The position numbers and the translations under genes were made by a program. Shown here one piece after another: positions 49,340-64,000 of a stretch of DNA of 64,000 nucleotides; within the stretch, counting starts at the first letter, position 1; the number at the start of each line of letters is the position of its first letter. Below the pieces are notes generated by a model. That model was not told the DNA's origin and did no database searches. It worked only from the letters and a program-made list of their open reading frames with translations. This DNA comes from an uncultured Lachnospiraceae bacterium (GTDB lineage Bacteria; Bacillota; Clostridia; Lachnospirales; Lachnospiraceae), in assembly GCA_947167135.1 (NCBI GenBank), contig CAMVGV010000010.1:2237-66236 (forward strand), in the 5' to 3' direction.

Positions 49340-50662
49340 TTACCTTCTCACAGGGAGCATTACATTTGAAAAGAATTCGCATCCTTCATGCGAAAAGTAG
49401 GCGTTTCCGCCTTTAGATCTCGCAATGGATCCGATTGAGACAAGCCCCAGGCCGTTTCTCTTGTGGCCTGTGGAAAAATAGGTGCCGTTTACGATTTCGG
49501 GAGTACCGTTAAAGCTGTTTACTGCGGTGATAAAGAGATAGTAGTCATTCCTCACAGCCGCCGTAAGGCGGATGAAGCGCTTATATGCTTCTATTTCCCG
49601 GCAGGCATTTATGGCGTTTTCCAGAATATTACCGAAAATGCTGCAAAGCTCATTGTCGGAAATATCCATTTCCTTCGGCAGGGAAATATCCACGCTAAGC
49701 GGTATCTTCTCCATCTTTGCGATCTCCATATAGTAATTGAGAACCGCGTTTACAGCGGGATTCGAACAGACAGTTTTCACGGTGAGACCCGGCATATCAA
49801 CAATATAGCGGTCGATCAGGCTTTCGATCTCTTCGGTTTTTCCTTCAGCTGCAAGGCTCTTTATCGTCCTCACCGTATGCTTGAAGTCATGCCGCTCCTT
49901 TGCAACTGCCTCCAGATAACGCTGCTGTTTCTTAAACTGGGTTTCCTGCATCTGCAGGATATTATTCTCATTCTCTATATCCGCCGCTTCGATCATTGCC
50001 GTTACTATGAAATAAAACTGGATACAGAGAAGTATCATCAGCGTAAAAAACAAAACGAGTGAGAGCCAGAAAGCCAGGAAAACATTGTGTACATGCAGCG
50101 TTTCATAGTGCCTGGGGACAATGAAAAGATTGTAGGTAAGAAAGATAGCCATCACTCCGGCTGCCGTATACCATATCCTGTTCTGATGAAGCCTGTCCAC
50201 CATCATCCTTCCAAAGACCCTGAGGGGCTGCCACACGATGAGAAGGAAGACCACATTTATCAGTGCCTGAAATACTGCTGCTCTGAAACTGAAGTGATTG
50301 ATATCGGAGGTGGGATTGATAATGGCATCATAGCCGTTGGCAAAATTATTTAAGAACCCCGTAGCCGCGCCTGACAGGATAAACATAAACAAAGCCTTGC
50401 TGGTATGACAGCTCAGACAGTAACGGAATACAATGAAACAGATAAGAAAGGCGAGCGGTGTGATCCCGTTATAGGAAAGACCAAAGTATACTTCGACTGC
50501 GGAAAGCACGAGGATCATGATAAGAAAAACAACAGAGACGATCTTTATTGTTTTTCCCCTGGAAAACCTAAGCTGGTTCTTCATAGGGAGAAAACAGAGC
50601 ATTGCGGCCGTGATAAAGGGGATCCAGGTAATTAAATCGGCAAAAAAAGCGGAGGAACTCAT
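49340..50662 (-). CDS. HPK10-type (AgrC/ComD-like) sensor histidine kinase, GHKL ATPase
   Basis: About 6 N-terminal TMs, an H-box KERHDFKHTVRTI, and a C-terminal HATPase_c_5-like region (GNILENAINA...GLGLVSI). Its start overlaps the RR stop (ATGA). Confidence 0.85.
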   Translation of the reverse strand: MSSSAFFADLITWIPFITAAMLCFLPMKNQLRFSRGKTIKIVSVVFLIMILVLSAVEVYFGLSYNGITPLAFLICFIVFRYCLSCHTSKALFMFILSGAATGFLNNFANGYDAIINPTSDINHFSFRAAVFQALINVVFLLIVWQPLRVFGRMMVDRLHQNRIWYTAAGVMAIFLTYNLFIVPRHYETLHVHNVFLAFWLSLVLFFTLMILLCIQFYFIVTAMIEAADIENENNILQMQETQFKKQQRYLEAVAKERHDFKHTVRTIKSLAAEGKTEEIESLIDRYIVDMPGLTVKTVCSNPAVNAVLNYYMEIAKMEKIPLSVDISLPKEMDISDNELCSIFGNILENAINACREIEAYKRFIRLTAAVRNDYYLFITAVNSFNGTPEIVNGTYFSTGHKRNGLGLVSIGSIARSKGGNAYFSHEGCEFFSNVMLPVRR

Positions 50663-51405
50663 AAGGTTACTCCGCGATGCTCATTCCGGAGCTTATGAAA
50701 AACATAATTTCTCCAGGTCTCCTCTGCCTCCGGCTGATTCTTCTGGCTGATGGGGATACGTATGCTGTTTATGATGCAGCAGACCCCCTTCTCAAAGTTC
50801 ATGATATGATCCATATTTACGATCATGCCCCTGGAGACCATAAGGAAACGACCATCCTTGCCCAGAGTATCCCAAAGCTCATTAAAGCCTGTCCTGGTCT
50901 TGTACACAGCCCCGTCCTTATCCTCTATCTCCTGCCTGTTTCCGTCAGCAATAACTGTAACAATGCGGGAATAGGGGATCTGGACGTCACATCGGTTACT
51001 CATAAATTTCAGGAGCTTATTTGCCCCGGGATCCGTTGTGCGATTCAGGATATCATCAAAGGCCTTAAAGACCCTCTCCCTGACCACCGGCTTTTCCATA
51101 TATTCGTATGCATGGATGGAAAAGGCCTCCGGCATATACTCCAGGCTGCTGGTCAGAAAGAGTATAAACATATCACTGTCCCTCTTTCGGATCTCCTGAG
51201 CCGCCTCCACACCGTTCATGCCCTCCATGAAAATATCCAGAAAGACCGCCGTATAGCGGAAGGGACGAAAGGCCATCAGAAAATCCTCTGCCTTATCAAA
51301 TTCATCAATAGACAGCTCCAGATCGTTTATTACGGAATATTCCTTTAGGTAAAGGATCAGAGGCTCTACCTCTTCCCTGATATCATCAACAATCGCAACG
51401 TTCAT
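50659..51405 (-). CDS. LytTR-family response regulator
   Basis: A REC domain (MNVAIVDD...FLDIFMEGMNG) plus a C-terminal LytTR DNA-binding domain (...IPYSRIVTVIADGNRQEI...FLMVSRGMIVNMDHI). Confidence 0.88.
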   Translation of the reverse strand: MNVAIVDDIREEVEPLILYLKEYSVINDLELSIDEFDKAEDFLMAFRPFRYTAVFLDIFMEGMNGVEAAQEIRKRDSDMFILFLTSSLEYMPEAFSIHAYEYMEKPVVRERVFKAFDDILNRTTDPGANKLLKFMSNRCDVQIPYSRIVTVIADGNRQEIEDKDGAVYKTRTGFNELWDTLGKDGRFLMVSRGMIVNMDHIMNFEKGVCCIINSIRIPISQKNQPEAEETWRNYVFHKLRNEHRGVTL

Positions 51406-51459: not shown

Positions 51460-51686
51460 CAGCGCCAGCGCTTCTGTAATCCTGAGCGAAGCGAAGGATC
51501 TTTCCCAACCGATGAGAAAGATTCTTCGGGCTGCGCCCTCAGAATGACATACTCGTTTATGTCATCCTGAGCGAAGCGCTCCTGTCATCCTGAGCGCCAG
51601 CGAAGGATCTTCTACTGCCGGAGGAAAGATCCTTCGTCGCTTTGCTCCTCAGGATGACAAAGTAGGCTGCGCCCTCAGAATGACAC
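51460..51686. repeat. Composite REP array including a hairpin element of about 78 nt (51583-51660)
   Basis: Several GTCATCCTGAGCG / CCCTCAGAATGAC units. The 51583-51660 element is about 90% identical to the reverse complement of 49188-49268. Confidence 0.88.
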
Positions 51687-51689
51687 GAG

Positions 51690-53321
51690 CGTAGCTCTCA
51701 CCGGGCAGTATAGCTTCCGGTGAGATTGCTGCCCTTGAAAGTGAAGGTCTTCGAAGACCCGCTATAGCTCCACTCTTCCTTCTTTGCCTTGTAATCCTTT
51801 CCGTTTATCATCACTTTGACAGACTTCGGGCTCCCGTTCTTTTTCCATTTCACTGTCAAAGAATCCGTATTTCTGACATAGTAGGGATTTGACTTATATG
51901 ACAGACCCTTTGACCCCTTTGTGGCTTTCTTTATTTCTCTTTCCGTTTTTTTGTCGGCTCCGGAGAGTCCCGTTATCTGGAAGCAGTGGTTCTTTTTATT
52001 GATCTTTACCTTTGTTACCTTATAGGTGGCATTATTGACCGATACCGTGATCCCCTTTTCTCCAAAGACCTCTATTCCTGCCTTTGATTTTCCCCAGAAC
52101 GGAAGCTCGTGGCAGTAGGATATCCTTTATGATCCCTTTGTCTCCGTACGGTAGTCCATAGGCTTATTGTCGGAAACAGTGACTTTCTTTTCTGCCGCAT
52201 CATTACCGCTGCCGGTATTGTCGTCTGTTTTTCCTTCTTCATTCTCACTGCTGTTATCTTTTTTCTGATCCACATAGGTGAGATACCATGATGAAAGACG
52301 GTCTGTTTCTACAGGAAGCGTAGTGTCCGTACCGGATGAGGCGATCTCCACCCTTCCGTCATCATAAATATGGACAACGAAAAACGTTCTTATGACCTCC
52401 TCATCATCGTTCCTCATGGATACGGGAACCTCTATGGTAAATGCTATTTTCCCCGTTCCTTTTTCAGGTTCGATCTCCTGTTTACTGCCATTCCCGACCT
52501 GCTTATAAAGCTTGATATCAAGCATCATTCCGCTTCCCGATACATCAGTTCCGGTGCTTTTCTTTACCTCAGCCTCTGCTTTTGCTTTTGCCTCTTCATT
52601 GCCGCCGGTTGTATCACCGCTTGCCTTCTCTTTTATCTCCAGCGTTACCGTCAGGGTTTCTCCGGCTTCCACTGCCTGTTTTTCTGTTTCATTTAAGAGA
52701 CCGGCTGCGAGCTCTGCAGGGATCGTGACATCACTTACGGCAAAACCATCATTCTCACCGGTATCGTAGGTCACAACCTTGCTCTCTATCTTTCCGGTAC
52801 CGTTAGGTATGGTGTTTTCCGGGAGAGTTTCCTCGTTCCTTTTGTAAATATAGAAAGTATTTTTACCATATTCCACAGAGTAATTACCCTGTGTTTCTTC
52901 TCCGGATGCGCTTATTTCATACTTTCCGGCATCTTCTCCGCTTTCACGGGAGAGCGTATATTTTATAAGCCCATCGCTTTCACCCTCTACGATACCCGTA
53001 ACAGCTGCGGTCAGCTCCGGATCCTCTTCACCGGTAAGCTTTTCCTTTTCATCGGGCCTTACTGTTACCGCAGCTCTCTTTATCGTTACGCTTACACCGG
53101 CCTCTTCACTGTCAGAATGATCACTGTCCCCGAAGACCTTGTAATACACGGTATAGGTGCCTGCATCCTTCTTTACGGGGACATTCTCCGTATATCCGCT
53201 TCCGGATGTGAGGCTGTACATTAATGTTCCGCCTGCAGCGGTGCCTTTCTCTGTGAGGGTCTGATCACCTCCGTTGTAGGTAAGGTCTTTTGCGGAAGGA
53301 GCCTTTGTGATGACTGATCCG
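51690..53321. repeat. Adhesin 3' cassette, copy A (about 1.6 kb shared with copy C, 1.15 kb with copy B)
   Basis: The ORF track shows identical protein strings, identical antisense ORFs and identical 67-aa out-of-frame ORFs at offsets +4962 and +8076. Nucleotide comparison by eye shows identity except near the tract ends. Confidence 0.92.
51698..52126 (-). other. Start-less 142-codon ORF in frame with, and immediately after, the TAA stop of the LRR adhesin gene (copy A)
   Basis: Manual translation after TAA (52129-52127): RISYCHELPFWGKSKAGIEVFGEKGITVSVNNATYKVTKVKINKKNHCFQITGLSGADKK...KTFTFKGSNLTGSYTAR, then TGA (51700-51698). There is no ATG/GTG/TTG before codon 92, so it is absent from the ORF track. 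Confidence 0.6.
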
Positions 53322-56300
53322 GCCTTATTCCCGGCGGGTTCTGCAGATGCGGTAACCGTCACCTTGCAGGTCGCGGTTTTATTTCCGTCTGCCGTGGTGA
53401 CCGTGATGTTTGCCGTTCCGGGCGCAACAGCTGTTACCACACCCTTTTCATTTACCGTGGCGACCTGTGTATTACTGCTCTTCCAGGTCACTGCTTTATT
53501 TGTGGCATCTGAAGGTTCCACTGCAGCAGTAAGGGTCAGGGTCTTTCCCTTTACTATGGACGCACTGCTCTTATTAAGCTTTACCCCGGTTACAGAACGG
53601 GCAGCGATCTTAAATTTTTTCGTAAGATTCAGGACGTATCGCCCTGTTCCCTTTACTGTAACGGTGGCTTCGCCTGCATTGGTATTATTCTTGTACTGCA
53701 CGCTGTAGCAGCCGGGGTAGAGGATACCGTCTGCATTTTTTACGCTTATCTTCGGAGTGATCGCCTTTCCTGTGTATATCTGATCCGGGATATTATCGAT
53801 CACGTAGCCCTTGCCCGACAGATCCTCGCGGTAGTTGCAGATTAAATTGGCAGAGAGCATCTCCCCCTTGTCTTCATCCATATTATAATCGAGGAGAGTC
53901 AACGAGCCGAACTGGTTATCATACCCGCCAATCAAATACTGCTTGGCTTCCTCTGTTTCAGGATCTTTCCATTCTTCTCCCATTATAGGGAACATTGTTT
54001 TCAATATCTCAAGCTTACCTTCATCGCTTATGTTCCTGAAGCTGTCTTCAAGAGCCTGCCATTCCTCTTTACTGCCCGGGAAATAAACATCTTTAACCTC
54101 TGCCGCCATAAACAGGAAAGGCATCAGATGGTCTTTATCAAGGTTTTTGGGCAGGATCACCTTACCGGCACTGCCTTGGATAAACAGAAACAATCCAAGT
54201 TCAGTCACGCTGTCCGGTATATTGACACTCTCCATTTTATTTCCGGCAAATGCACAATCACCTATAGATTTCACTCCTTCAGGAATAAGAATGTTTTTAA
54301 GCTTCATGCATCCTGCAAAGGCATAAGGGGCTATCTTTTCCGTCCCGGAAGGAACAGAGTATGTACTTTCCTCCCTTCCTGCAGGGTACTGAATGAGAGT
54401 CTTTCCATCCTTTGAAAACAGTACGCCTCCAACAGCCTTGACGCAATTATTGCCCTCTGCAACATTTATAGAGACCAGTTCAGGACACACACAAAACGGA
54501 CTGCCCTCAGTTGTTCCTATCTCTTTTACACTTGCAGGGAGGGTGATCTCTTTTATGGGGCATTGCTGGAAAGCACAGGCGGCTATGGTTTCAAGACCTT
54601 CGTTAAGGCTTACGGTCTCTAATCCTTCATTAAAGGCAAACGCATATCTGCCTATGGATTTTACACTCTTAGGAATATTGACATTGGTCAATGCTGTTCC
54701 TGAAAATGCATACTCGTCTATGGATTCTAAGCCTTCTTTCAGAGTCAGGCTGCTTAATTTCTCACATGATTCAAACGCTTTCGAACCTATGGTTTTAAGA
54801 CCTTCCGGAAGAGTCACCTCTGTCACTCCCTTAAGCAGCAAGAAAGCGCTGTTTCCGATACCTGTGATACCATCTTTTATTATTATCCGGCTTATGTCAC
54901 TGAAAGAATAAATCTCACCATTATAACTCCAGGTTTTTTTCCATGGCTGCCCTGAGTTATCTGAGTTATCCGAATAATCCGGCATATTGCCCCGTCCGGA
55001 TATGGTCAGGATGAATTTCCCCTCCTCTTCATCCGGGCTTATCTCCCAGGTGATATTGTTGTTTTCACCTATGGTTCCGCTTTTTATCACATTTGAAGGA
55101 GTAATACTGAGTTCTTTGCTTTTAGCTATCTGTTTTTGCGATCCCTCCTCGTTGTAGTAACCCAGGACTCTGAAAACATATTCCTTTCCGGGGTCAAGTT
55201 TCTTTATCTCACTGTCGAGTTTTCCGTTAATGATCTGACTGTCCGGTACATTTATCCAATCTCCATTTTCATTTTTCATCTCTATCTTATAACTAAAGGC
55301 ATCTTTGGCAGGATCAATGTCGTAATATTTTTCCCAGCTTATTTTCGCCTTTCCGGTTCCGGATTCTGCTTCTATTGAAGCGTTGACTACGCCCTTCTTA
55401 TAGTTATAGATAACTGTAAACGGATTAGAATTGTTTACCGTTTCCAAACCGCCGTAATTCTCAAACTGCTCCTTTGTACCGCTGTACAGTATATACTTAT
55501 CGTCAACAGAGCATTTTTCAAAAACAGAACCCCCTGTTTCCTTGATATTGCTTCCAAAAGCCACGCGCGTCAGGTCTGTACATCCTGAAAAAAGCTTCTG
55601 CTCCAGACTGCTGACCCTCGACGGAATCTCGATACTTACAAGCCCTGATGTATTAAATGCGGATACTCCTATTTTCTCCAACGTATCCGGAAGTTCTATG
55701 CCTTTTAAGGCTTCGCATTTATAGAACGCATATTTTCCGATTGTTTTTAAATTGCCGGGAAGCTTTACCGAGGATAAAGAAGTGCACGTGCTAAAGGTAG
55801 AATCAGGCAGTATTTCCAATTTGCAGTTCTCATTAAAGCTGACCGTCTTAAGCTCTTTGCATTCGTTAAATACGCTTTCTCCCATTGAGGTAAGTCCCGA
55901 AGGAAGAGTGACCGATTTCAGGGCCGTTTTATACAAAGCCGTTTTTCCGATATGTGTAAGATTTTTCGGAAGCAAGATCTCAGATAAAGCTTCGCACTCA
56001 GAAAACGCATCGTCACCTATTGTTTCAACTTTTTCGGGAATCGTAATGCTTGTTAGAGCTTTACAACCATTAAAAGCAAAATCCCCGATCTCAGACAGAG
56101 ATTCCGGTAATTCCACTTCTGTGACCTCTGTGAAATCTTTAAGGGCATTATTCCCGACCCTTGTTATCCCCTTGTCTATCACAACCTTTGTCACTCTTTG
56201 AAGGGGGTAATAATTAGTGTCCTGTCCGAGCATGAATCCCTTTTGCCAGGGACTATTTGTACCCGCTACATAATCCGGTATTGCACCCTCACCTTCGAAG

Positions 56301-56533
56301 GTCAGGGTGTTCGTACCTGGATCGATCTTCCAACTGATGACCTTCCCGTTTCCGCCATCCACCTCGCCGGAGGCTATGGTCTCAATCTCTCCATTCCCGG
56401 AAGCTACCGGCTCACCGGCCATTACCTCTGCCCCACCGACCGGAACTCCTCCCGTAACTGGCATAAAAAGACTGCCGGCGAGTACCGCCGCTGCAGTAAT
56501 AACAGACATCATACGTCTTCCGCTCTTATTCAT
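52127..56533 (-). CDS. Secreted surface protein: two BspA-type leucine-rich-repeat blocks, FN3-like, Big_2, MBG (YGX-type) domains and a shared C-terminal module
   Basis: A signal peptide. Repeated ..IPE.V..IG..AF..C..L..I.LP motifs (LRR_5/BspA). A Big_2 segment (VTGVKLNKSSASIVKGKTLTLTA...ATCKVTV). An MBG-like domain (KLTGEEDPELTA...GNYSVEYGKNTFYI). No LPXTG. Confidence 0.85.
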   Translation of the reverse strand: MNKSGRRMMSVITAAAVLAGSLFMPVTGGVPVGGAEVMAGEPVASGNGEIETIASGEVDGGNGKVISWKIDPGTNTLTFEGEGAIPDYVAGTNSPWQKGFMLGQDTNYYPLQRVTKVVIDKGITRVGNNALKDFTEVTEVELPESLSEIGDFAFNGCKALTSITIPEKVETIGDDAFSECEALSEILLPKNLTHIGKTALYKTALKSVTLPSGLTSMGESVFNECKELKTVSFNENCKLEILPDSTFSTCTSLSSVKLPGNLKTIGKYAFYKCEALKGIELPDTLEKIGVSAFNTSGLVSIEIPSRVSSLEQKLFSGCTDLTRVAFGSNIKETGGSVFEKCSVDDKYILYSGTKEQFENYGGLETVNNSNPFTVIYNYKKGVVNASIEAESGTGKAKISWEKYYDIDPAKDAFSYKIEMKNENGDWINVPDSQIINGKLDSEIKKLDPGKEYVFRVLGYYNEEGSQKQIAKSKELSITPSNVIKSGTIGENNNITWEISPDEEEGKFILTISGRGNMPDYSDNSDNSGQPWKKTWSYNGEIYSFSDISRIIIKDGITGIGNSAFLLLKGVTEVTLPEGLKTIGSKAFESCEKLSSLTLKEGLESIDEYAFSGTALTNVNIPKSVKSIGRYAFAFNEGLETVSLNEGLETIAACAFQQCPIKEITLPASVKEIGTTEGSPFCVCPELVSINVAEGNNCVKAVGGVLFSKDGKTLIQYPAGREESTYSVPSGTEKIAPYAFAGCMKLKNILIPEGVKSIGDCAFAGNKMESVNIPDSVTELGLFLFIQGSAGKVILPKNLDKDHLMPFLFMAAEVKDVYFPGSKEEWQALEDSFRNISDEGKLEILKTMFPIMGEEWKDPETEEAKQYLIGGYDNQFGSLTLLDYNMDEDKGEMLSANLICNYREDLSGKGYVIDNIPDQIYTGKAITPKISVKNADGILYPGCYSVQYKNNTNAGEATVTVKGTGRYVLNLTKKFKIAARSVTGVKLNKSSASIVKGKTLTLTAAVEPSDATNKAVTWKSSNTQVATVNEKGVVTAVAPGTANITVTTADGNKTATCKVTVTASAEPAGNKAGSVITKAPSAKDLTYNGGDQTLTEKGTAAGGTLMYSLTSGSGYTENVPVKKDAGTYTVYYKVFGDSDHSDSEEAGVSVTIKRAAVTVRPDEKEKLTGEEDPELTAAVTGIVEGESDGLIKYTLSRESGEDAGKYEISASGEETQGNYSVEYGKNTFYIYKRNEETLPENTIPNGTGKIESKVVTYDTGENDGFAVSDVTIPAELAAGLLNETEKQAVEAGETLTVTLEIKEKASGDTTGGNEEAKAKAEAEVKKSTGTDVSGSGMMLDIKLYKQVGNGSKQEIEPEKGTGKIAFTIEVPVSMRNDDEEVIRTFFVVHIYDDGRVEIASSGTDTTLPVETDRLSSWYLTYVDQKKDNSSENEEGKTDDNTGSGNDAAEKKVTVSDNKPMDYRTETKGS

Positions 56534-56651: not shown

Positions 56652-57808
56652 AGTAGATCTCACCGGGAAGCATAGCTTCCGGTGAGATTGCTGCCCTTGA
56701 AGGTGAAGGTCTTCGAAGACCCGCTATAGCTCCACTCTTACTTCTTTGCCTTGTAATCCTTTCCGTTTATCATCACTTTGACAGACTTCGGGCTCCCGTT
56801 CTTTTTCCATTTCACTGTCAAAGAATCCGTATTTCTGACATAGTAGGGATTTGACTTATATGACAGACCCTTTGACCCCTTTGTGGCTTTCTTTATTTCT
56901 CTTTCCGTTTTTTTGTCGGCTCCGGAGAGTCCCGTTATCTGGAAGCAGTGGTTCTTTTTATTGATCTTTACCTTTGTTACCTTATAGGTGGCATTATTGA
57001 CCGATACCGTGATCCCCTTTTCTCCAAAGACCTCTATTCCTGCCTTTGATTTTCCCCAGAACGGAAGCTCGTGGCAGTAGGATATCCTTTATGATCCCTT
57101 TGTCTCCGTACGGTAGTCCATAGGCTTATTGTCGGAAACAGTGACTTTCTTTTCTGCCGCATCATTACCGCTGCCGGTATTGTCGTCTGTTTTTCCTTCT
57201 TCATTCTCACTGCTGTTATCTTTTTTCTGATCCACATAGGTGAGATACCATGATGAAAGACGGTCTGTTTCTACAGGAAGCGTAGTGTCCGTACCGGATG
57301 AGGCGATCTCCACCCTTCCGTCATCATAAATATGGACAACGAAAAACGTTCTTATGACCTCCTCATCATCGTTCCTCATGGATACGGGAACCTCTATGGT
57401 AAATGCTATTTTCCCCGTTCCTTTTTCAGGTTCGATCTCCTGTTTACTGCCATTCCCGACCTGCTTATAAAGCTTGATATCAAGCATCATTCCGCTTCCC
57501 GATACATCAGTTCCGGTGCTTTTCTTTACCTCAGCCTCTGCTTTTGCTTTTGCCTCTTCATTGCCGCCGGTTGTATCACCGCTTGCCTTCTCTTTTATCT
57601 CCAGCGTTACCGTCAGGGTTTCTCCGGCTTCCACTGCCTGTTTTTCTGTTTCATTTAAGAGACCGGCTGCGAGCTCTGCAGGGATCGTGACATCACTTAC
57701 GGCAAAACCATCATTCTCACCGGTATCGTAGGTCACAACCTTGCTCTCTATCTTTCCGGTACCGTTAGGTATGGTGTTTTCCGAGAGAGTTTCCTCGTTC
57801 CTTTTGTA
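56652..57808. repeat. Adhesin 3' cassette, copy B
   Basis: Identical to 51690-52846 except for a few SNPs. One of them creates TAA in the post-stop ORF (56740-56738). Confidence 0.92.
56660..57088 (-). other. Post-stop in-frame ORF, copy B (interrupted by an extra TAA at codon 117)
   Basis: Same sequence as copy A. GAA (E117) in copy A is TAA here. Confidence 0.6.
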
Positions 57809-58275
57809 AATTAGGAAGCGGCGACATTTACATCCTTCTCCCGTTCCTCTTCAACTGCTGCCTCTGCCTTCTCCTCGTCTGTGCGTCCGGCTTTATTTAC
57901 CGAGAGATGTATATCCCCCTCAGGAAAAGCACCGCTTTCAGCTCCTACGGTGATCTTTACGCCGTCAATTGTTTTTGATTCTTCGAAAGCATCAGAGGAT
58001 ACATTATCAGCGGGATCATCCGGGGCAGCTTCATTATCTGCTGCTTCGTCACCGGACACAGTTCTGCCGTCACCATTTCCGGATACACTGACAGAAGCGT
58101 CCGGCTTTTCAGGCTCTGAAATTTCCGGTCCCGCAGTATCAGACTCACCGGACTCCTGTTCTATGGTTTCCTCTATTTCAGATCCGAAAGCCACCGCCGG
58201 AACCTGCGTAGTCAGCATTATTGCCGTAAGTCCCACTGCTGCAAGTCTTTTCAATACATTCCCGTACCTTCTCAT
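57089..58275 (-). pseudogene. Chimeric, frame-disrupted adhesin fragment: 154-aa signal-peptide/acidic N-terminus joined out of frame to the shared C-terminal module
   Basis: ORF 57811-58275 (MRRYGNVLKRLAAVGLTAIMLTTQVPAVAFG...) stops at TAA 57813-57811. The shared module (..IYKRNEETLSENTIPNGTGKIESKVVTYDTGEN..) continues in the -1 frame from the same point. I see no slippery heptamer. Confidence 0.7.
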
Positions 58276-58367: not shown

Positions 58368-59660
58368 TCAGTCTTTAAGACATGCCAGCGGTATTATTTT
58401 AACCCCATCCTCCCTGGTATATGCCATATTTCCACCGGTGATGATAATTAACAGATCCGGTTCCCTGAGAGGTAATTGCTTTTCTTTTTTATTATACTCT
58501 CTGACAAGCTCTTTTATTTTCAGCAGGTGACCGGCCCCTTCTTCTATTTCTGCACTTCCAAGCTTAAACTCAATAAGAGCATATCTTCCGTCTCCTATAT
58601 GAAGCACCGCGTCCGCTTCAAGACCATATCTGTCATGATAGTAAGATACTTTTCCGTTTATGGCCTGTGAGTAAACCTTTAAGTCTCTTATGCACATGCA
58701 TTCAAAGATAAAGCCAAATGTCTTCAGGTCCATTTCCAGATAATCCGGCGTTAATCCCAACGAAGCCACTGCAATGGACGGATCTACAAACTCCCGTTTG
58801 TACCCTGAACGAATGGTGGTCGCAGACCGAATAGACGGACACCACGCTTCAACGTCTTCTATTACAAATAATCTTTCCAGTGCCGTCAGGTAGGAATCAA
58901 AAGTACCCTGTGACAAAGACTCTTCATTTGCGTTAACATCATTGAAAATATTGCTTTTTTTTGACAAAGTGGACAGATTTCTTGAATACGACTTTAGTAT
59001 TGCACTCGCCAACGAGGGATTTCTGCCGGTTCCGTCAACTGTGGAAATATCTGACTCGCACACATTTTTCAAATAGTCTTTAGCCACAAACAGCTTGGCC
59101 TGATCAGATTTTTTTCGTAAGGTTGATGGCCATCCTCCTCTGCATGCGGCAAAAATAAGCTCCTCCACCTTCATTTCCGATGTTATTCCATCAATATCCA
59201 GATCAGAATCATCAAAGAGTTCTTTTAATGATATCTTCCCATTAGATTCCAATGACTCAAACAGACTCATCGGGTACATCTTTAATCGGGATATTCTGCC
59301 GGTTCCGGTATGATGTATCTTTTTTTCATCAACTGAGGTGGACCCGGTCAATATAAATAATCCATCTTCCTGGCGGTTATCGACGGCAGTTCTTACTGCA
59401 TCCCATAGTACAGGTGCTTCCTGCCATTCATCTATAAGTCGCGGATTATCCCCTTTCAACAAAAGAGAAGGTTTTGTATTTGCTGTTGCCAGATATGATT
59501 CTCTCATGTCCGGATCCTGCATTTTTAACACACTTTTAGCCTTCTGTTCAGCAGAAGTTGTTTTCCCGCACCATTTTGGACCTATTATCAGAGTAGCTCC
59601 TGATGCCTCCAACCGTAATCCTAATTCTGAATCTATAATTCTATGTAAGTATTCACCCAT
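58368..59660 (-). CDS. AAA+ ATPase with DUF4143 (AAA_14/DUF4143 family)
   Basis: YLHRIIDSEL...LIIGPKWCGKTT (Walker A) and LFILTGS, with a C-terminal region typical of DUF4143 proteins. I prefer the start MGEYLHR at 59660, which has a GAGGTG SD, over the track start at 59720. Confidence 0.8.
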   Translation of the reverse strand: MGEYLHRIIDSELGLRLEASGATLIIGPKWCGKTTSAEQKAKSVLKMQDPDMRESYLATANTKPSLLLKGDNPRLIDEWQEAPVLWDAVRTAVDNRQEDGLFILTGSTSVDEKKIHHTGTGRISRLKMYPMSLFESLESNGKISLKELFDDSDLDIDGITSEMKVEELIFAACRGGWPSTLRKKSDQAKLFVAKDYLKNVCESDISTVDGTGRNPSLASAILKSYSRNLSTLSKKSNIFNDVNANEESLSQGTFDSYLTALERLFVIEDVEAWCPSIRSATTIRSGYKREFVDPSIAVASLGLTPDYLEMDLKTFGFIFECMCIRDLKVYSQAINGKVSYYHDRYGLEADAVLHIGDGRYALIEFKLGSAEIEEGAGHLLKIKELVREYNKKEKQLPLREPDLLIIITGGNMAYTREDGVKIIPLACLKD

Positions 59661-59718
59661 TTTGTCACCACCTCTTACACACAAAGAATATTGTAAATCA
59701 GGGATTTTGTCAATTGTC

Positions 59719-59785
59719 ATTGTGTGTTTTTGAGGTGATGTGTTGTGTGTTTTTGAGGCTATTCGTTGTGTGTTTTTGAGGAAGC
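59719..59785. repeat. Three direct copies of TGTGTGTTTTTGAGG (period 22-23 nt)
   Basis: Read directly. The repeats sit between the ATPase start and the end of cassette copy C, and they encode the divergent tail of the copy-C post-stop ORF. Confidence 0.85.
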
Positions 59786-60202
59786 ATAGCTTCCGGCGAG
59801 ATTGCTGCCCTTGAAGGTGAAGGTCTTTGAAGTCCCATTATAGCTCCACTCTTCCTTCTTTGCCTTGTAATCCTTTCCGTTTATCATCACTTTGACAGAC
59901 TTCGGGCTCCCGTTCTTTTTCCATTTCACTGTCAAAGAATCCGTATTTCTGACATAGTAGGGATTTGACTTATATGACAGACCCTTTGACCCCTTTGTGG
60001 CTTTCTTTATTTCTCTTTCCGTTTTTTTGTCGGCTCCGGAGAGTCCCGTTATCTGGAAGCAGTGGTTCTTTTTATTGATCTTTACCTTTGTTACCTTATA
60101 GGTGGCATTATTGACCGATACCGTGATCCCCTTTTCTCCAAAGACCTCTATTCCTGCCTTTGATTTTCCCCAGAACGGAAGCTCGTGGCAGTAGGATATC
60201 CT
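59759..60202 (-). other. Post-stop in-frame ORF, copy C (147 codons, open)
   Basis: Same as copy A up to ..FKGSNLAGSYASSKTHNE, then TAG (59761-59759). Confidence 0.6.
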
Positions 60203-61395
60203 TTATGATCCCTTTGTCTCCGTACGGTAGTCCATAGGCTTATTGTCGGAAACAGTGACTTTCTTTTCTGCCGCATCATTACCGCTGCCGGTATTGTCGT
60301 CTGTTTTTCCTTCTTCATTCTCACTGCTGTTATCTTTTTTCTGATCCACATAGGTGAGATACCATGATGAAAGACGGTCTGTTTCTACAGGAAGCGTAGT
60401 GTCCGTACCGGATGAGGCGATCTCCACCCTTCCGTCATCATAAATATGGACAACGAAAAACGTTCTTATGACCTCCTCATCATCGTTCCTCATGGATACG
60501 GGAACCTCTATGGTAAATGCTATTTTCCCCGTTCCTTTTTCAGGTTCGATCTCCTGTTTACTGCCATTCCCGACCTGCTTATAAAGCTTGATATCAAGCA
60601 TCATTCCGCTTCCCGATACATCAGTTCCGGTGCTTTTCTTTACCTCAGCCTCTGCTTTTGCTTTTGCCTCTTCATTGCCGCCGGTTGTATCACCGCTTGC
60701 CTTCTCTTTTATCTCCAGCGTTACCGTCAGGGTTTCTCCGGCTTCCACTGCCTGTTTTTCTGTTTCATTTAAGAGACCGGCTGCGAGCTCTGCAGGGATC
60801 GTGACATCACTTACGGCAAAACCATCATTCTCACCGGTATCGTAGGTCACAACCTTGCTCTCTATCTTTCCGGTACCGTTAGGTATGGTGTTTTCCGGGA
60901 GAGTTTCCTCGTTCCTTTTGTAAATATAGAAAGTATTTTTACCATATTCCACAGAGTAATTACCCTGTGTTTCTTCTCCGGATGCGCTTATTTCATACTT
61001 TCCGGCATCTTCTCCGCTTTCACGGGAGAGCGTATATTTTATAAGCCCATCGCTTTCACCCTCTACGATACCCGTAACAGCTGCGGTCAGCTCCGGATCC
61101 TCTTCACCGGTAAGCTTTTCCTTTTCATCGGGCCTTACTGTTACCGCAGCTCTCTTTATCGTTACGCTTACACCGGCCTCTTCACTGTCAGAATGATCAC
61201 TGTCCCCGAAGACCTTGTAATACACGGTATAGGTGCCTGCATCCTTCTTTACGGGGACATTCTCCGTATATCCGCTTCCGGATGTGAGGCTGTACATTAA
61301 TGTTCCGCCTGCAGCGGTGCCTTTCTCTGTAAGTGTCTGATTACCTCCGTTATAGGTAAGGTCTTTTGCGGAAGGAGCCTTTGTGATGACTGATT
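59766..61395. repeat. Adhesin 3' cassette, copy C
   Basis: Matches 51690-53321. SNPs are concentrated in the outer 100 nt or so at both ends. Confidence 0.92.
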
Positions 61396-64000
61396 GAACC
61401 TTATTCACAGTGAGTTTTCCTGTTTTACAGGTGATATTGTAGTTAGCCGTGACATCTTTTCCGGAGGCGTCACTGATGGCCGCCCCGGAGGCTGTGATGG
61501 TGTGCTCACCTGCAGTACTTCCGTCAGCTGTCAGATTGACCCGGCTCAGGCTGTGGCCTGCCACCGCGTCTGCAAGCACTGCCTGTTTCGTTCCGGTCTT
61601 TAAGCTTTCTCCGAATAATATGATCTGGTCACAGGCTGTGACTACTGCGTCCCTCTTATTAATGGTGAAGGTCCTGCTCCCGCTGAAGCTGTAATTCCCG
61701 TTCTTTACGCTCGTTACAGCTGCCGTTGCTGTTCCTGCGTTTATATTATTACTGTAGCTTACGTTATATTCCTTTCCGGGAATTTCATCATCTCCATTCT
61801 TTACCGTGACCGCCGGTTCTTTTGGCTTGCCGTCATAGGTTAAGGATTCTTCCGAAAGCTCTATAACAGGGTTTGCTATTATCTTTGGCTTTATAGTAAA
61901 TACACCCTTTTCAAAGGTTACGCTGTAATTACCCTGAGCACTCTCTCCGGCAGGGGTGATGTCATAGGTTCCGACATTCTCCCCTGTTGCGCGGGAAATA
62001 CTGTAGCTTACTGTGTCTGTTCCGATAAGGCCTGTTTCTGTCGCCGTATATTCTGCCGGGACAGGGTCAGATTCCCCATAGATTTTCTCTTTATTATCTG
62101 CTTTAACCGTGACAGCCTTTTTCTTTATAGTGACAGAAACCTGTCCTTCATCGCTGTCCTCATGATTATTATCTCCAAAGACCTTGTAGTATACGGTATA
62201 GGTTCCGGCATCTTTCCTTTCGGGAAGAGTCTCTGCATAACCACTTCCGGATGTCAGGCTGTATTTCAGCGTTCCGCCTGCAGCGATCCCCGCTTCAACA
62301 AGAGTCTGATCCAGGCCGGAATAGGTAAGGCTCTTTACTGTGGGAGCCTTTTTTACCACTGCTTTGATCTTTGTGACAGTGAGAGTTCCGTTTTGATAGG
62401 TGATGTTATATTTGGCGGTAACGTCCGCAGTGCCACTCTTTATCACTGCTGCACCTGGAGTAATGGTGCCGCTATCTGTGATGGCGGCAGTGCTGCTCGA
62501 TGTAAGAGTAACTGTATTGATAGCATGTCCGTCAACAAGAGAACCCGATGTCACACTTACCATATTTGTTCCCGTGGCGATGCTTCCATTAAGTTCCACA
62601 CTCTGATCCTTTGCTGTGATGGTGACTGAGCGCTTAGTAATATCTGCGGTTACAGCCGCAGGCTGGGAAATCAGCTCATAGTTGCCAGCGACCGTACCAC
62701 TGAGCGCGAAGCCGGAAAATGTCACGGTCTTGCCGTCACCGACGTTTGCGTCTGAGAATTCTGCCGTACCTTCCTCAATTTCTACATCATCATTGCCTAC
62801 CTTGCCGTCAATCAATGCAGACGTCATAACAGGAGTCGCTTCTGTCGTGCCGTCATATTCTTTTTCGGAAACAGTCACGCCGGTGATGGTAACCCTCTTC
62901 GGGGCAATGGTATATTCCACGCTCGCAGTAGCTGCTCCGGTTCCTTCACCCAGGGTGATCTTTGCTATATAGGTTCCGGCTCCGGTCGGCGCGGCATCCA
63001 GCTTAGACGATCCCTTGTAATAGGAGATCCCGGGAGTCCCAAGGAAATCCGTATCTCCGCTTATAGTCGCTTCCGCACTCTTTTGATCCCCGTAGATTTC
63101 ATGAGAGGGCTTATCTATAGTAATAACTTTAACAAATGAACCGTTATCACTTGTGCCTGTAGCTTTGATCTTCGCACCCTCTGCCGTATAACCCTCGATT
63201 ATATATAGGGGTTTGGAAACTGCGGTCAGTGTCAATGAGTCCGTATTACCGGGCAATGTTACGGATGTGCCTGCAGGCAGCACCTTATCATCATTTCCTA
63301 CCTTCCATCCGGCAAACTTAGAGTTACTTCCATCAGGGACAGTAAAGCTGCATTCGGGGAGTGTGAAGCTTCCTCCTGACCTGCCGTAGGTACCCTCCAT
63401 GCTGCCGGAGAGCTCTCCCTTATCGAATGTGATCTTTACACCGGGAACTATGGTCGTGCCTCCCATGTTGTCCCGGGTAGCCACAGTTTCCGGAGAATCC
63501 TTCAATACGAAGGTCTTTTGAAAGTCGACCGTTGTATTACTCTCTGCGTGGAATGCGCTGGTGTACAGCTCCATACCCGGATCGTTCCAGGAGAGGATAA
63601 CATCACCCTCGCAGCCACCGTTTTCGCTATAAGGCGTATAGTAATATCCACCTATAGCATTGATGCCCGTAACAATATTCCAATTCCTTTCGACTTTGGC
63701 ATTTATTTTTCCTCCGGTGATAGTCAGCGTTCCACCGATGCCGTGATTTCCCCCGCCAATGGCCGGTGCATTTTGTGCTACGGCTTCTATCACTCCGCCA
63801 CAGATCGTAATATTGCCTGCAGGGTCACACGGATCGTTCGGTTTAGAACGAAGCCCTGAGCCGATAGCCGTATAACCATAAAACGTATTGTACGGATGGT
63901 CACTTGCCTTCAGCTTTCCGGTTCCCTTAGACTGTCCGTATATGGTAAGACTGTTTCCCTCTTTCACATTGATCCCGCATTTTGCATCCGCTGTAGATCC
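60203..64000 (-). CDS. Large surface protein (5' end outside window): beta-helix-like Gly-rich N-region, multiple MBG (YGX-type) and Ig-like repeats, shared C-terminal module
   Basis: Repeated ..KIYGESDP...YS.SR..GENVGTYDIT..G....GNYSV.F..G.F.I.. units (MBG). The N-region has ITICGGVIEAVAQNAPAIGGGNHGIGGTLTITGG. The last 400 aa or so are identical to the LRR protein. The ORF is open to the window edge. Confidence 0.85.
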   Translation of the reverse strand, partial: GSTADAKCGINVKEGNSLTIYGQSKGTGKLKASDHPYNTFYGYTAIGSGLRSKPNDPCDPAGNITICGGVIEAVAQNAPAIGGGNHGIGGTLTITGGKINAKVERNWNIVTGINAIGGYYYTPYSENGGCEGDVILSWNDPGMELYTSAFHAESNTTVDFQKTFVLKDSPETVATRDNMGGTTIVPGVKITFDKGELSGSMEGTYGRSGGSFTLPECSFTVPDGSNSKFAGWKVGNDDKVLPAGTSVTLPGNTDSLTLTAVSKPLYIIEGYTAEGAKIKATGTSDNGSFVKVITIDKPSHEIYGDQKSAEATISGDTDFLGTPGISYYKGSSKLDAAPTGAGTYIAKITLGEGTGAATASVEYTIAPKRVTITGVTVSEKEYDGTTEATPVMTSALIDGKVGNDDVEIEEGTAEFSDANVGDGKTVTFSGFALSGTVAGNYELISQPAAVTADITKRSVTITAKDQSVELNGSIATGTNMVSVTSGSLVDGHAINTVTLTSSSTAAITDSGTITPGAAVIKSGTADVTAKYNITYQNGTLTVTKIKAVVKKAPTVKSLTYSGLDQTLVEAGIAAGGTLKYSLTSGSGYAETLPERKDAGTYTVYYKVFGDNNHEDSDEGQVSVTIKKKAVTVKADNKEKIYGESDPVPAEYTATETGLIGTDTVSYSISRATGENVGTYDITPAGESAQGNYSVTFEKGVFTIKPKIIANPVIELSEESLTYDGKPKEPAVTVKNGDDEIPGKEYNVSYSNNINAGTATAAVTSVKNGNYSFSGSRTFTINKRDAVVTACDQIILFGESLKTGTKQAVLADAVAGHSLSRVNLTADGSTAGEHTITASGAAISDASGKDVTANYNITCKTGKLTVNKVQSVITKAPSAKDLTYNGGNQTLTEKGTAAGGTLMYSLTSGSGYTENVPVKKDAGTYTVYYKVFGDSDHSDSEEAGVSVTIKRAAVTVRPDEKEKLTGEEDPELTAAVTGIVEGESDGLIKYTLSRESGEDAGKYEISASGEETQGNYSVEYGKNTFYIYKRNEETLPENTIPNGTGKIESKVVTYDTGENDGFAVSDVTIPAELAAGLLNETEKQAVEAGETLTVTLEIKEKASGDTTGGNEEAKAKAEAEVKKSTGTDVSGSGMMLDIKLYKQVGNGSKQEIEPEKGTGKIAFTIEVPVSMRNDDEEVIRTFFVVHIYDDGRVEIASSGTDTTLPVETDRLSSWYLTYVDQKKDNSSENEEGKTDDNTGSGNDAAEKKVTVSDNKPMDYRTETKGS

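Follow-up and report, generated by a model that had tools for sequence, protein, structure and literature searches.

Within the 64,000-nt stretch of Lachnospiraceae DNA analysed here (hereafter the window), three adhesin copies on the minus strand, termed A, B and C, end in the same way: each reads ...TVSDNKPMDYRTETKGS-TAA and then continues in the same frame with RISYCHELPFWGK..., which raises the question of why a stop codon should be followed, three times over, by a long open frame. The original prediction named readthrough of the TAA into a long isoform as the first of three options, the second being a nonsense mutation of very recent date that gene conversion had distributed. Minus-strand translation upheld the observation that all three TAA-ended copies continue in frame, for 142-147 codons. 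In copy A, the TAA (52127..52129, minus strand) is followed by 142 codons and a TGA (51698-52126, minus strand). In copy B, the extension (56660-57088, minus strand) is interrupted at codon 117 by an additional in-frame TAA (GAA to TAA, 56738-56740), as had already been noticed. In copy C, the TAA lies at 60203..60205 (minus strand) and the extension (59759-60202, minus strand) runs for 147 codons and a stop, its last residues being rewritten by a tandem repeat of three 23-nt units. These units (TTGTGTGTTTTTGAGG..., 59720-59788) overlap the end of the copy C extension, where the tail reads …GSYASSKTHNE; the related protein P0016 ends similarly (…SSRIHNE). The 63 nt spanning the stop do not differ among the three copies. 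A late first start codon had also been predicted for the extension frame and was indeed found, although its position had to be corrected from codon 92, which is a GTG, to codon 90, which is a TTG and the first ATG, GTG or TTG of the frame.

The three copies differ in what precedes the TAA. Adhesin gene A, as presently read (52127..56533, minus strand), encodes a protein of 1468 aa with a signal peptide and LRR_5 (BspA-type), fn3, Big_2 and MBG_2 domains. Adhesin gene C (60203..64000, minus strand) has its 5' end beyond the window; the part inside encodes over 1254 aa and carries YDG and MBG_2 domains. Copy B of the shared adhesin 3' part (57089..57818, minus strand; about 240 codons, with its TAA at 57089-57091) is identical to positions 52127-52821 of A and severed from its own 5' part. 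The latter is represented by a remnant (57811..58275, minus strand), a 154-aa ORF with a signal peptide (MRRYGNVLKRLAAVGLTAIMLTTQVPAVAFG...) that ends in a stop and meets the shared 3' part out of frame at about 57818, and gene B must be read from its sequence as a pseudogene. An open passenger frame in a large gene thus precedes the extension only for copies A and C, so that the three adhesin cassettes originally proposed are confirmed for A and C and reduced to a pseudogene for B. Adhesins A and C also contain a 278-nt repeat (53103-53380, 61179-61456 and 62148-62425; 72-86% identity), which sits in the part of the proteins to which MBG_2 domains were assigned and outside the perfectly homogenised tract described below. 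Between the copy C extension and the gene B remnant lies a gene for a 450-aa ATPase with AAA_14 and DUF4143 domains (58368-59720, minus strand).

The open frame following the TAA is not a product of chance, since it is homologous to a conserved protein domain. When 1.84 billion representative proteins were searched exhaustively with a profile, the extension proved to be a C-terminal module of about 140 aa, present in 145 clusters at 50% identity and ending at most five residues from the C-terminus in 61 of the 66 strong matches with a length of 250 aa or more. Scanning a single genome for each species located the domain at 22 loci, every one of them in rumen Lachnospiraceae, the sources including the cultured strains AD3010, MC2017 and NK4A144 as well as several rumen MAGs, with many paralogues of the family per genome in relatives. 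At 17 of these 22 loci the domain forms the last 140 residues or so of an uninterrupted ORF, between 328 and at least 2091 aa in length, and the remaining five are truncated or degraded remnants. The passengers are diverse: LRR_5 was found in 38/75 family members and Flg_new in 15/75, with Big_2, DUF285, Lipase_3, Amidase_6, Transglut_core, GDPD, Peptidase_S41 and CotH as further partners, and 54/75 members have a signal-peptide-like N-terminus. From the varied N-terminal parts, the C-terminal position and the signal peptides we conclude that the extension has, at the sequence level, the character of a promiscuous C-terminal module of secreted proteins. A word-indexed protein search with the extension returned ten short proteins alone (82-177 aa), one of which, L003, already runs unbroken from TVSDNKPM... 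into the domain. The idea that the domain is always encoded as a separate ORF was nevertheless rejected: on their contigs these short proteins proved to be fragments cut by the contig end or remnants lying next to unrelated genes, and the fused forms recovered by the genome scan and the exhaustive profile search overturned it.

Loci L021, L022, L023, L024 and L025 carry module copies with stops, missing 5' halves or a fusion to a different Gly-rich ORF, and the family appears from its sequences to decay and rearrange often. Truncated module remnants in relatives directly follow an AAA-ATPase_like/PDDEXK_9 gene (L002/L023) or a YkuD-like gene (L001); such genes and the AAA_14/DUF4143 gene of the window may mark rearrangement points.

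No known family accounts for the module. Scans of the extension and 49 family members against Pfam, NCBIfam and PHROGs gave no family at threshold, the sole recurrent match being a sub-threshold one to CBM_5_12 in 11/49 members, which we take only as a lead towards a possible glycan-binding role. A literature search returned nothing specific to this domain or locus. The module folds confidently in prediction: the AlphaFold2 model of the 142 residues reached a pLDDT of 96 and a pTM of 0.81 with the 49-member alignment (pLDDT 81 with a shallow alignment of 11 sequences) and consists mostly of beta structure with one helix, in agreement with the beta-rich folded domain that had been guessed from composition. 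A sequence-profile search of the PDB with the module gave no match at E-values up to 1, and Foldseek found nothing significant in the PDB (two models; best E-value 0.45) or in BFVD (best E-value 0.17). Partial matches suggesting an SH3-like or Sac7d-like identity covered about 45 residues with a probability of at most 0.7 and were not relied on.

The composition of the module is as distinctive as its position. Its pI is 10.0 and its net charge about +20, against a pI of 4.8 for the passenger part, and the family as a whole is similarly basic (median pI 9.9, range 9.5-10.2). Gram-positive surface proteins can be retained at the cell wall non-covalently by GW/SH3b, SLH, CW_binding_1/2 or LysM modules. 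The present module resembles these in being a basic, self-folding C-terminal unit attached to many unrelated extracellular passengers, among them LRR adhesins and wall-active enzymes (Amidase_6, Peptidase_S41). It differs from them in lacking sequence or structural similarity, in consisting of a single unit of about 140 aa without tandem repeats and in being restricted, among the genomes scanned, to rumen Lachnospiraceae. An LPXTG motif was not found in the protein, and the module gave no profile or fold match to the known wall anchors (LPXTG, SLH, CW_binding_1/2, LysM, GW/SH3b). Because of its very basic charge, its C-terminal position and its many unrelated secreted passengers, we propose that it is a putative undescribed non-covalent cell-envelope retention domain, in line with the perhaps wall-binding role raised in the original prediction.

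We compared the stop position with its counterparts in relatives. The original prediction had asked whether the extension is joined to adhesin ORFs by a sense codon in other genomes, and this is the case in 18/18 relatives with an intact junction, namely 17 intact genomic loci and one metagenome contig. The codon aligned to the TAA of the window is TTA (Leu) in L004 (RUG14895) and L005 (RGIG3735), both with 96% aa identity to the window module, and again in L026, the only metagenome contig that matches the junction exactly; the other 15 intact genomic loci carry TAT, TAC, TTT or TTC. These three closest relatives have GGATCATTAAGG where the window has GGATCATAAAGG, in a context that is otherwise the same. 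Across 72 family proteins the residue at this position is F in 26, Y in 21, L in 5 and I in 5, so that Tyr or Phe takes the place of Leu in most of the family. The fused ORF extends over 1969 aa in L005 and at least 2091 aa in L004. Gene C shares about 97% DNA identity with the L004 locus over 4233 nt, and its counterpart ORF there is the one of at least 2091 aa that includes the module; on this comparison we regard the L004 gene as the orthologue of gene C, probably from the same or a very close species. Furthermore, the module opens with the conserved (I/V)TVSDNKPM motif, 17 codons ahead of the stop; the stop therefore interrupts the module itself and does not mark the edge of a domain.

Close relatives thus possess a longer intact ORF that differs by one base at the stop, as is found in truncation by a premature stop. 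Since all intact relatives have a sense codon, the TAA is best read as a strain-specific nonsense mutation and, judged from the alignment, it corresponds to a single T-to-A transversion (TTA to TAA) specific to this assembly. Neither an exact look-up of the 1468-aa protein nor a query with the 215-aa C-terminal segment that is shared retrieved a second record with the TAA allele. The window's own 69-kb contig was the only place where this form was seen, and the allele rests on one assembly.

The presence of the same stop in three genes finds a counterpart in the extent of sequence shared among them. Copies A and B match without a single difference over 1043 nt (A 51779-52821), and copies A and C do so over 1492 nt (A 51763-53254, corresponding to C 59839-61330, both on the minus strand). 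The shared block comprises the last 230-375 adhesin codons, the TAA and the first 115-121 extension codons. Differences among the copies within the extension are confined to its distal 80 nt or so, and further differences lie downstream of it. Three derived states are common to all three copies, TAA, TGC48 (for CGT) and AAA60 (for AAG), and all three are missing from L004, L005 and L026. Over the tract, identity to L004, L005 and L026 is 93-98%, as opposed to 100% among the window copies; the paralogues are closer to each other than to their orthologues, which is the pattern of gene conversion or concerted evolution. We conclude from this comparison that the tract was, by its sequence, homogenised within the genome after the split from these relatives and carried the nonsense mutation along. 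Because the TAA lies inside a tract that is identical base for base, conversion or very recent duplication probably placed it in all three copies, although assembly collapse is another candidate. Of the options originally listed, the second, in which gene conversion distributed a nonsense mutation of very recent date, is thus the one that draws support from both the relatives' sense codons and the identical tract. The L026 contig breaks off near codon 121 of the extension, the point from which A and C differ, and the L005 contig ends 62 nt past the domain; these contig ends suggest that the relatives may also carry several copies with the same homogenised block.

The distal differences among A, B and C had been regarded as a coding signal because they keep the frame open. 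This argument fell away when the same variants (S122N, S124T, T140A and A141S, together with two synonymous changes) were found in the intact L004 and L005: they are inherited paralogue variants that lie outside the homogenised tract, predate the stop and consequently have no bearing on selection acting on the extension once severed. Within the tract, no substitution has accumulated since the stop arose, and dN/dS between the copies has too few sites to inform on selection after that point. The extension shows no decay at all in A and C, an observation that fits a very recent event and equally fits continued use.

Taken as an explanation of the locus, it is in our judgement highly probable that the frame following the TAA is the adhesins' normal C-terminal domain, severed by a nonsense mutation that spread in a homogenised tract. 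A T-to-A change turning TTA (Leu) into TAA would have cut off the C-terminal domain of about 140 codons, and the 3' tract of 1.0-1.5 kb that is kept identical among the paralogues would account for its presence in all three. The proteins would now be made without the module. As non-covalent tethering of proteins to the cell envelope is the most likely role of the module, adhesins A and C in their truncated form would be released or poorly retained, copy B being presumably already dead.

A comparable loss is documented in Listeria monocytogenes, where premature stops in inlA remove the wall anchor of an LRR adhesin in some strains (PMC12427964, PMC5131979). These InlA PMSC alleles are the closest analogue of the present case, being likewise natural single-nucleotide nonsense mutations that truncate an LRR surface adhesin, limited to certain strains while the relatives' gene is intact. 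The two cases differ in that InlA loses an LPXTG sortase signal of proven function, whereas the part lost here is a basic domain of about 140 aa with a putative anchoring role, and in that three paralogues here carry the same mutation simultaneously.

Concerted evolution or gene conversion between paralogues that encode surface proteins and have conserved ends in common is well known from Neisseria pilE/pilS and from the Mycoplasma MgPa repeats. The window resembles these systems in having nearby paralogues with differing passengers and a block that is identical within the genome yet different from other strains. In contrast to them, it shows no sign of a dedicated variation system, neither a silent cassette array nor a recombinase being present at the locus; it is the constant 3' end, and not the variable part, that has been homogenised, and conversion would have spread a defect and not diversity. 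The spread among the paralogues is on this comparison ordinary concerted evolution.

The main competitor of the severed-domain explanation is an artefact of assembly or sequencing, in which the 3' tracts would have been collapsed or polished to one consensus, or a base called wrongly. The TAA would then be confined to one copy, such as pseudogene B, or to a minority strain, or would not exist, and A and C would be intact fusions. Exact identity over 1043-1492 nt is what a single reused consensus would produce, the source is a 69-kb contig and not a finished chromosome, the allele was found in no other record, and the contigs of relatives break at or near the repeat, as noted above for L026 and L005. 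Against this, TGC48 and AAA60 are common to all copies together with the TAA, as expected of a real diverged allele, and a collapsed consensus normally takes the majority base, which would still place the TAA in most copies. Additionally, the contig runs through three repeats, each longer than 1 kb, in the space of 10 kb, which suggests that long reads were used. A systematic TTA-to-TAA miscall at GATCATTA was considered separately and rejected, this sequence being kept unchanged nine times elsewhere in the window. On balance we hold an artefact to be unlikely.

Less room is left for a functional TAA, which would give short released and long module-bearing isoforms by readthrough, or would act as a reversible switch repaired by gene conversion. 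In programmed stop-codon readthrough, of which the A1 protein of phage Q-beta is an example, a domain-encoding extension free of stops directly follows the stop in frame, as it does here; in A and C the frame of the gene carries on through an undamaged extension, which encodes a real, foldable domain (the pLDDT 96 model). Basal readthrough is never exactly zero at any stop codon. However, in known programmed cases the stop is kept across relatives and is usually UGA or UAG, whereas the stop of the window is UAA and unique to one assembly. It is conserved in no relative, the sense codon being found in all 18 intact ones, three of which are at about 96-97% identity, and it falls within the conserved module instead of at its boundary. 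TAA is generally the least leaky stop in bacteria, and in the window it is, as originally stated, an ordinary one and, by count, the commonest, ending 13/31 ORFs of at least 250 aa. A suppressor tRNA was not found in the window, which is without any tRNA gene. Copy B has acquired a second TAA, and the frame-keeping differences are older than the stop. The long readthrough isoform that headed the original prediction therefore did not stand up to the lack of conservation of the stop, the common use of TAA and the age of the differences, and programmed readthrough is, on the sequences compared, without support. Pattern scans around all three junctions revealed no promoter or terminator and were uninformative. 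Reassignment of TAA to a sense codon was ruled out by the 13/31 ORFs that it ends as the commonest stop in a window devoid of tRNA genes.

As for the switch, the many module-family paralogues per genome in relatives make an intact donor outside the window conceivable. If the shared TAA did work in this manner, through low-level readthrough or through reversible correction by gene conversion, with an intact paralogue elsewhere in the genome as donor, several adhesins would shift together between cell-bound and released states, with the homogenised 3' cassette as their common control point; we regard either form of such a switch as very improbable.

That the extension is an independent small gene, expressed by re-initiation or from a non-canonical start, deserves almost no credence: gene callers did make stand-alone homologous proteins of 82-177 aa, but these are the contig-end fragments and remnants beside unrelated genes mentioned above, the first ATG, GTG or TTG comes at codon 90, beyond over half of the fold, the domain closes off a larger secreted protein at its C-terminus in 61/66 long members, and the extension has no signal peptide of its own.

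The severed C-terminal domain is accordingly a real feature with an ordinary explanation; it does not hold as a recoding candidate and should not be carried forward as readthrough. Homogenisation of a 3' block that several adhesin genes have in common can bring a single nonsense mutation into all of them together, and the surface of a rumen bacterium may in this way be changed in one step. Annotation pipelines would show intact adhesins followed by an unexplained gap. The stranded frame is of modest side interest in having exposed an unannotated C-terminal domain family, the common tail of LRR adhesins and several enzymes, with a confidently predicted fold that has no match among solved structures. 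Should it serve as a wall-retention module, it would define surface-protein display in this group.

Two minor observations concern the region downstream of copy A. A cluster of short REP-like repeats, made of GTCATCCTGAGCGAAGCG and TGTCATTCTGAGGGCGCAGCC units in both orientations, occupies positions 51469-51685 just downstream of copy A and includes a 14-nt inverted repeat (51492-51505 and 51623-51636); the L004 gene is followed by a sequence similar to this cluster. Immediately downstream of adhesin A, genes for a GHKL histidine kinase (440 aa) and a LytTR response regulator (248 aa) are encoded at 49340-51405 (minus strand), and this pair could control the adhesin cluster.
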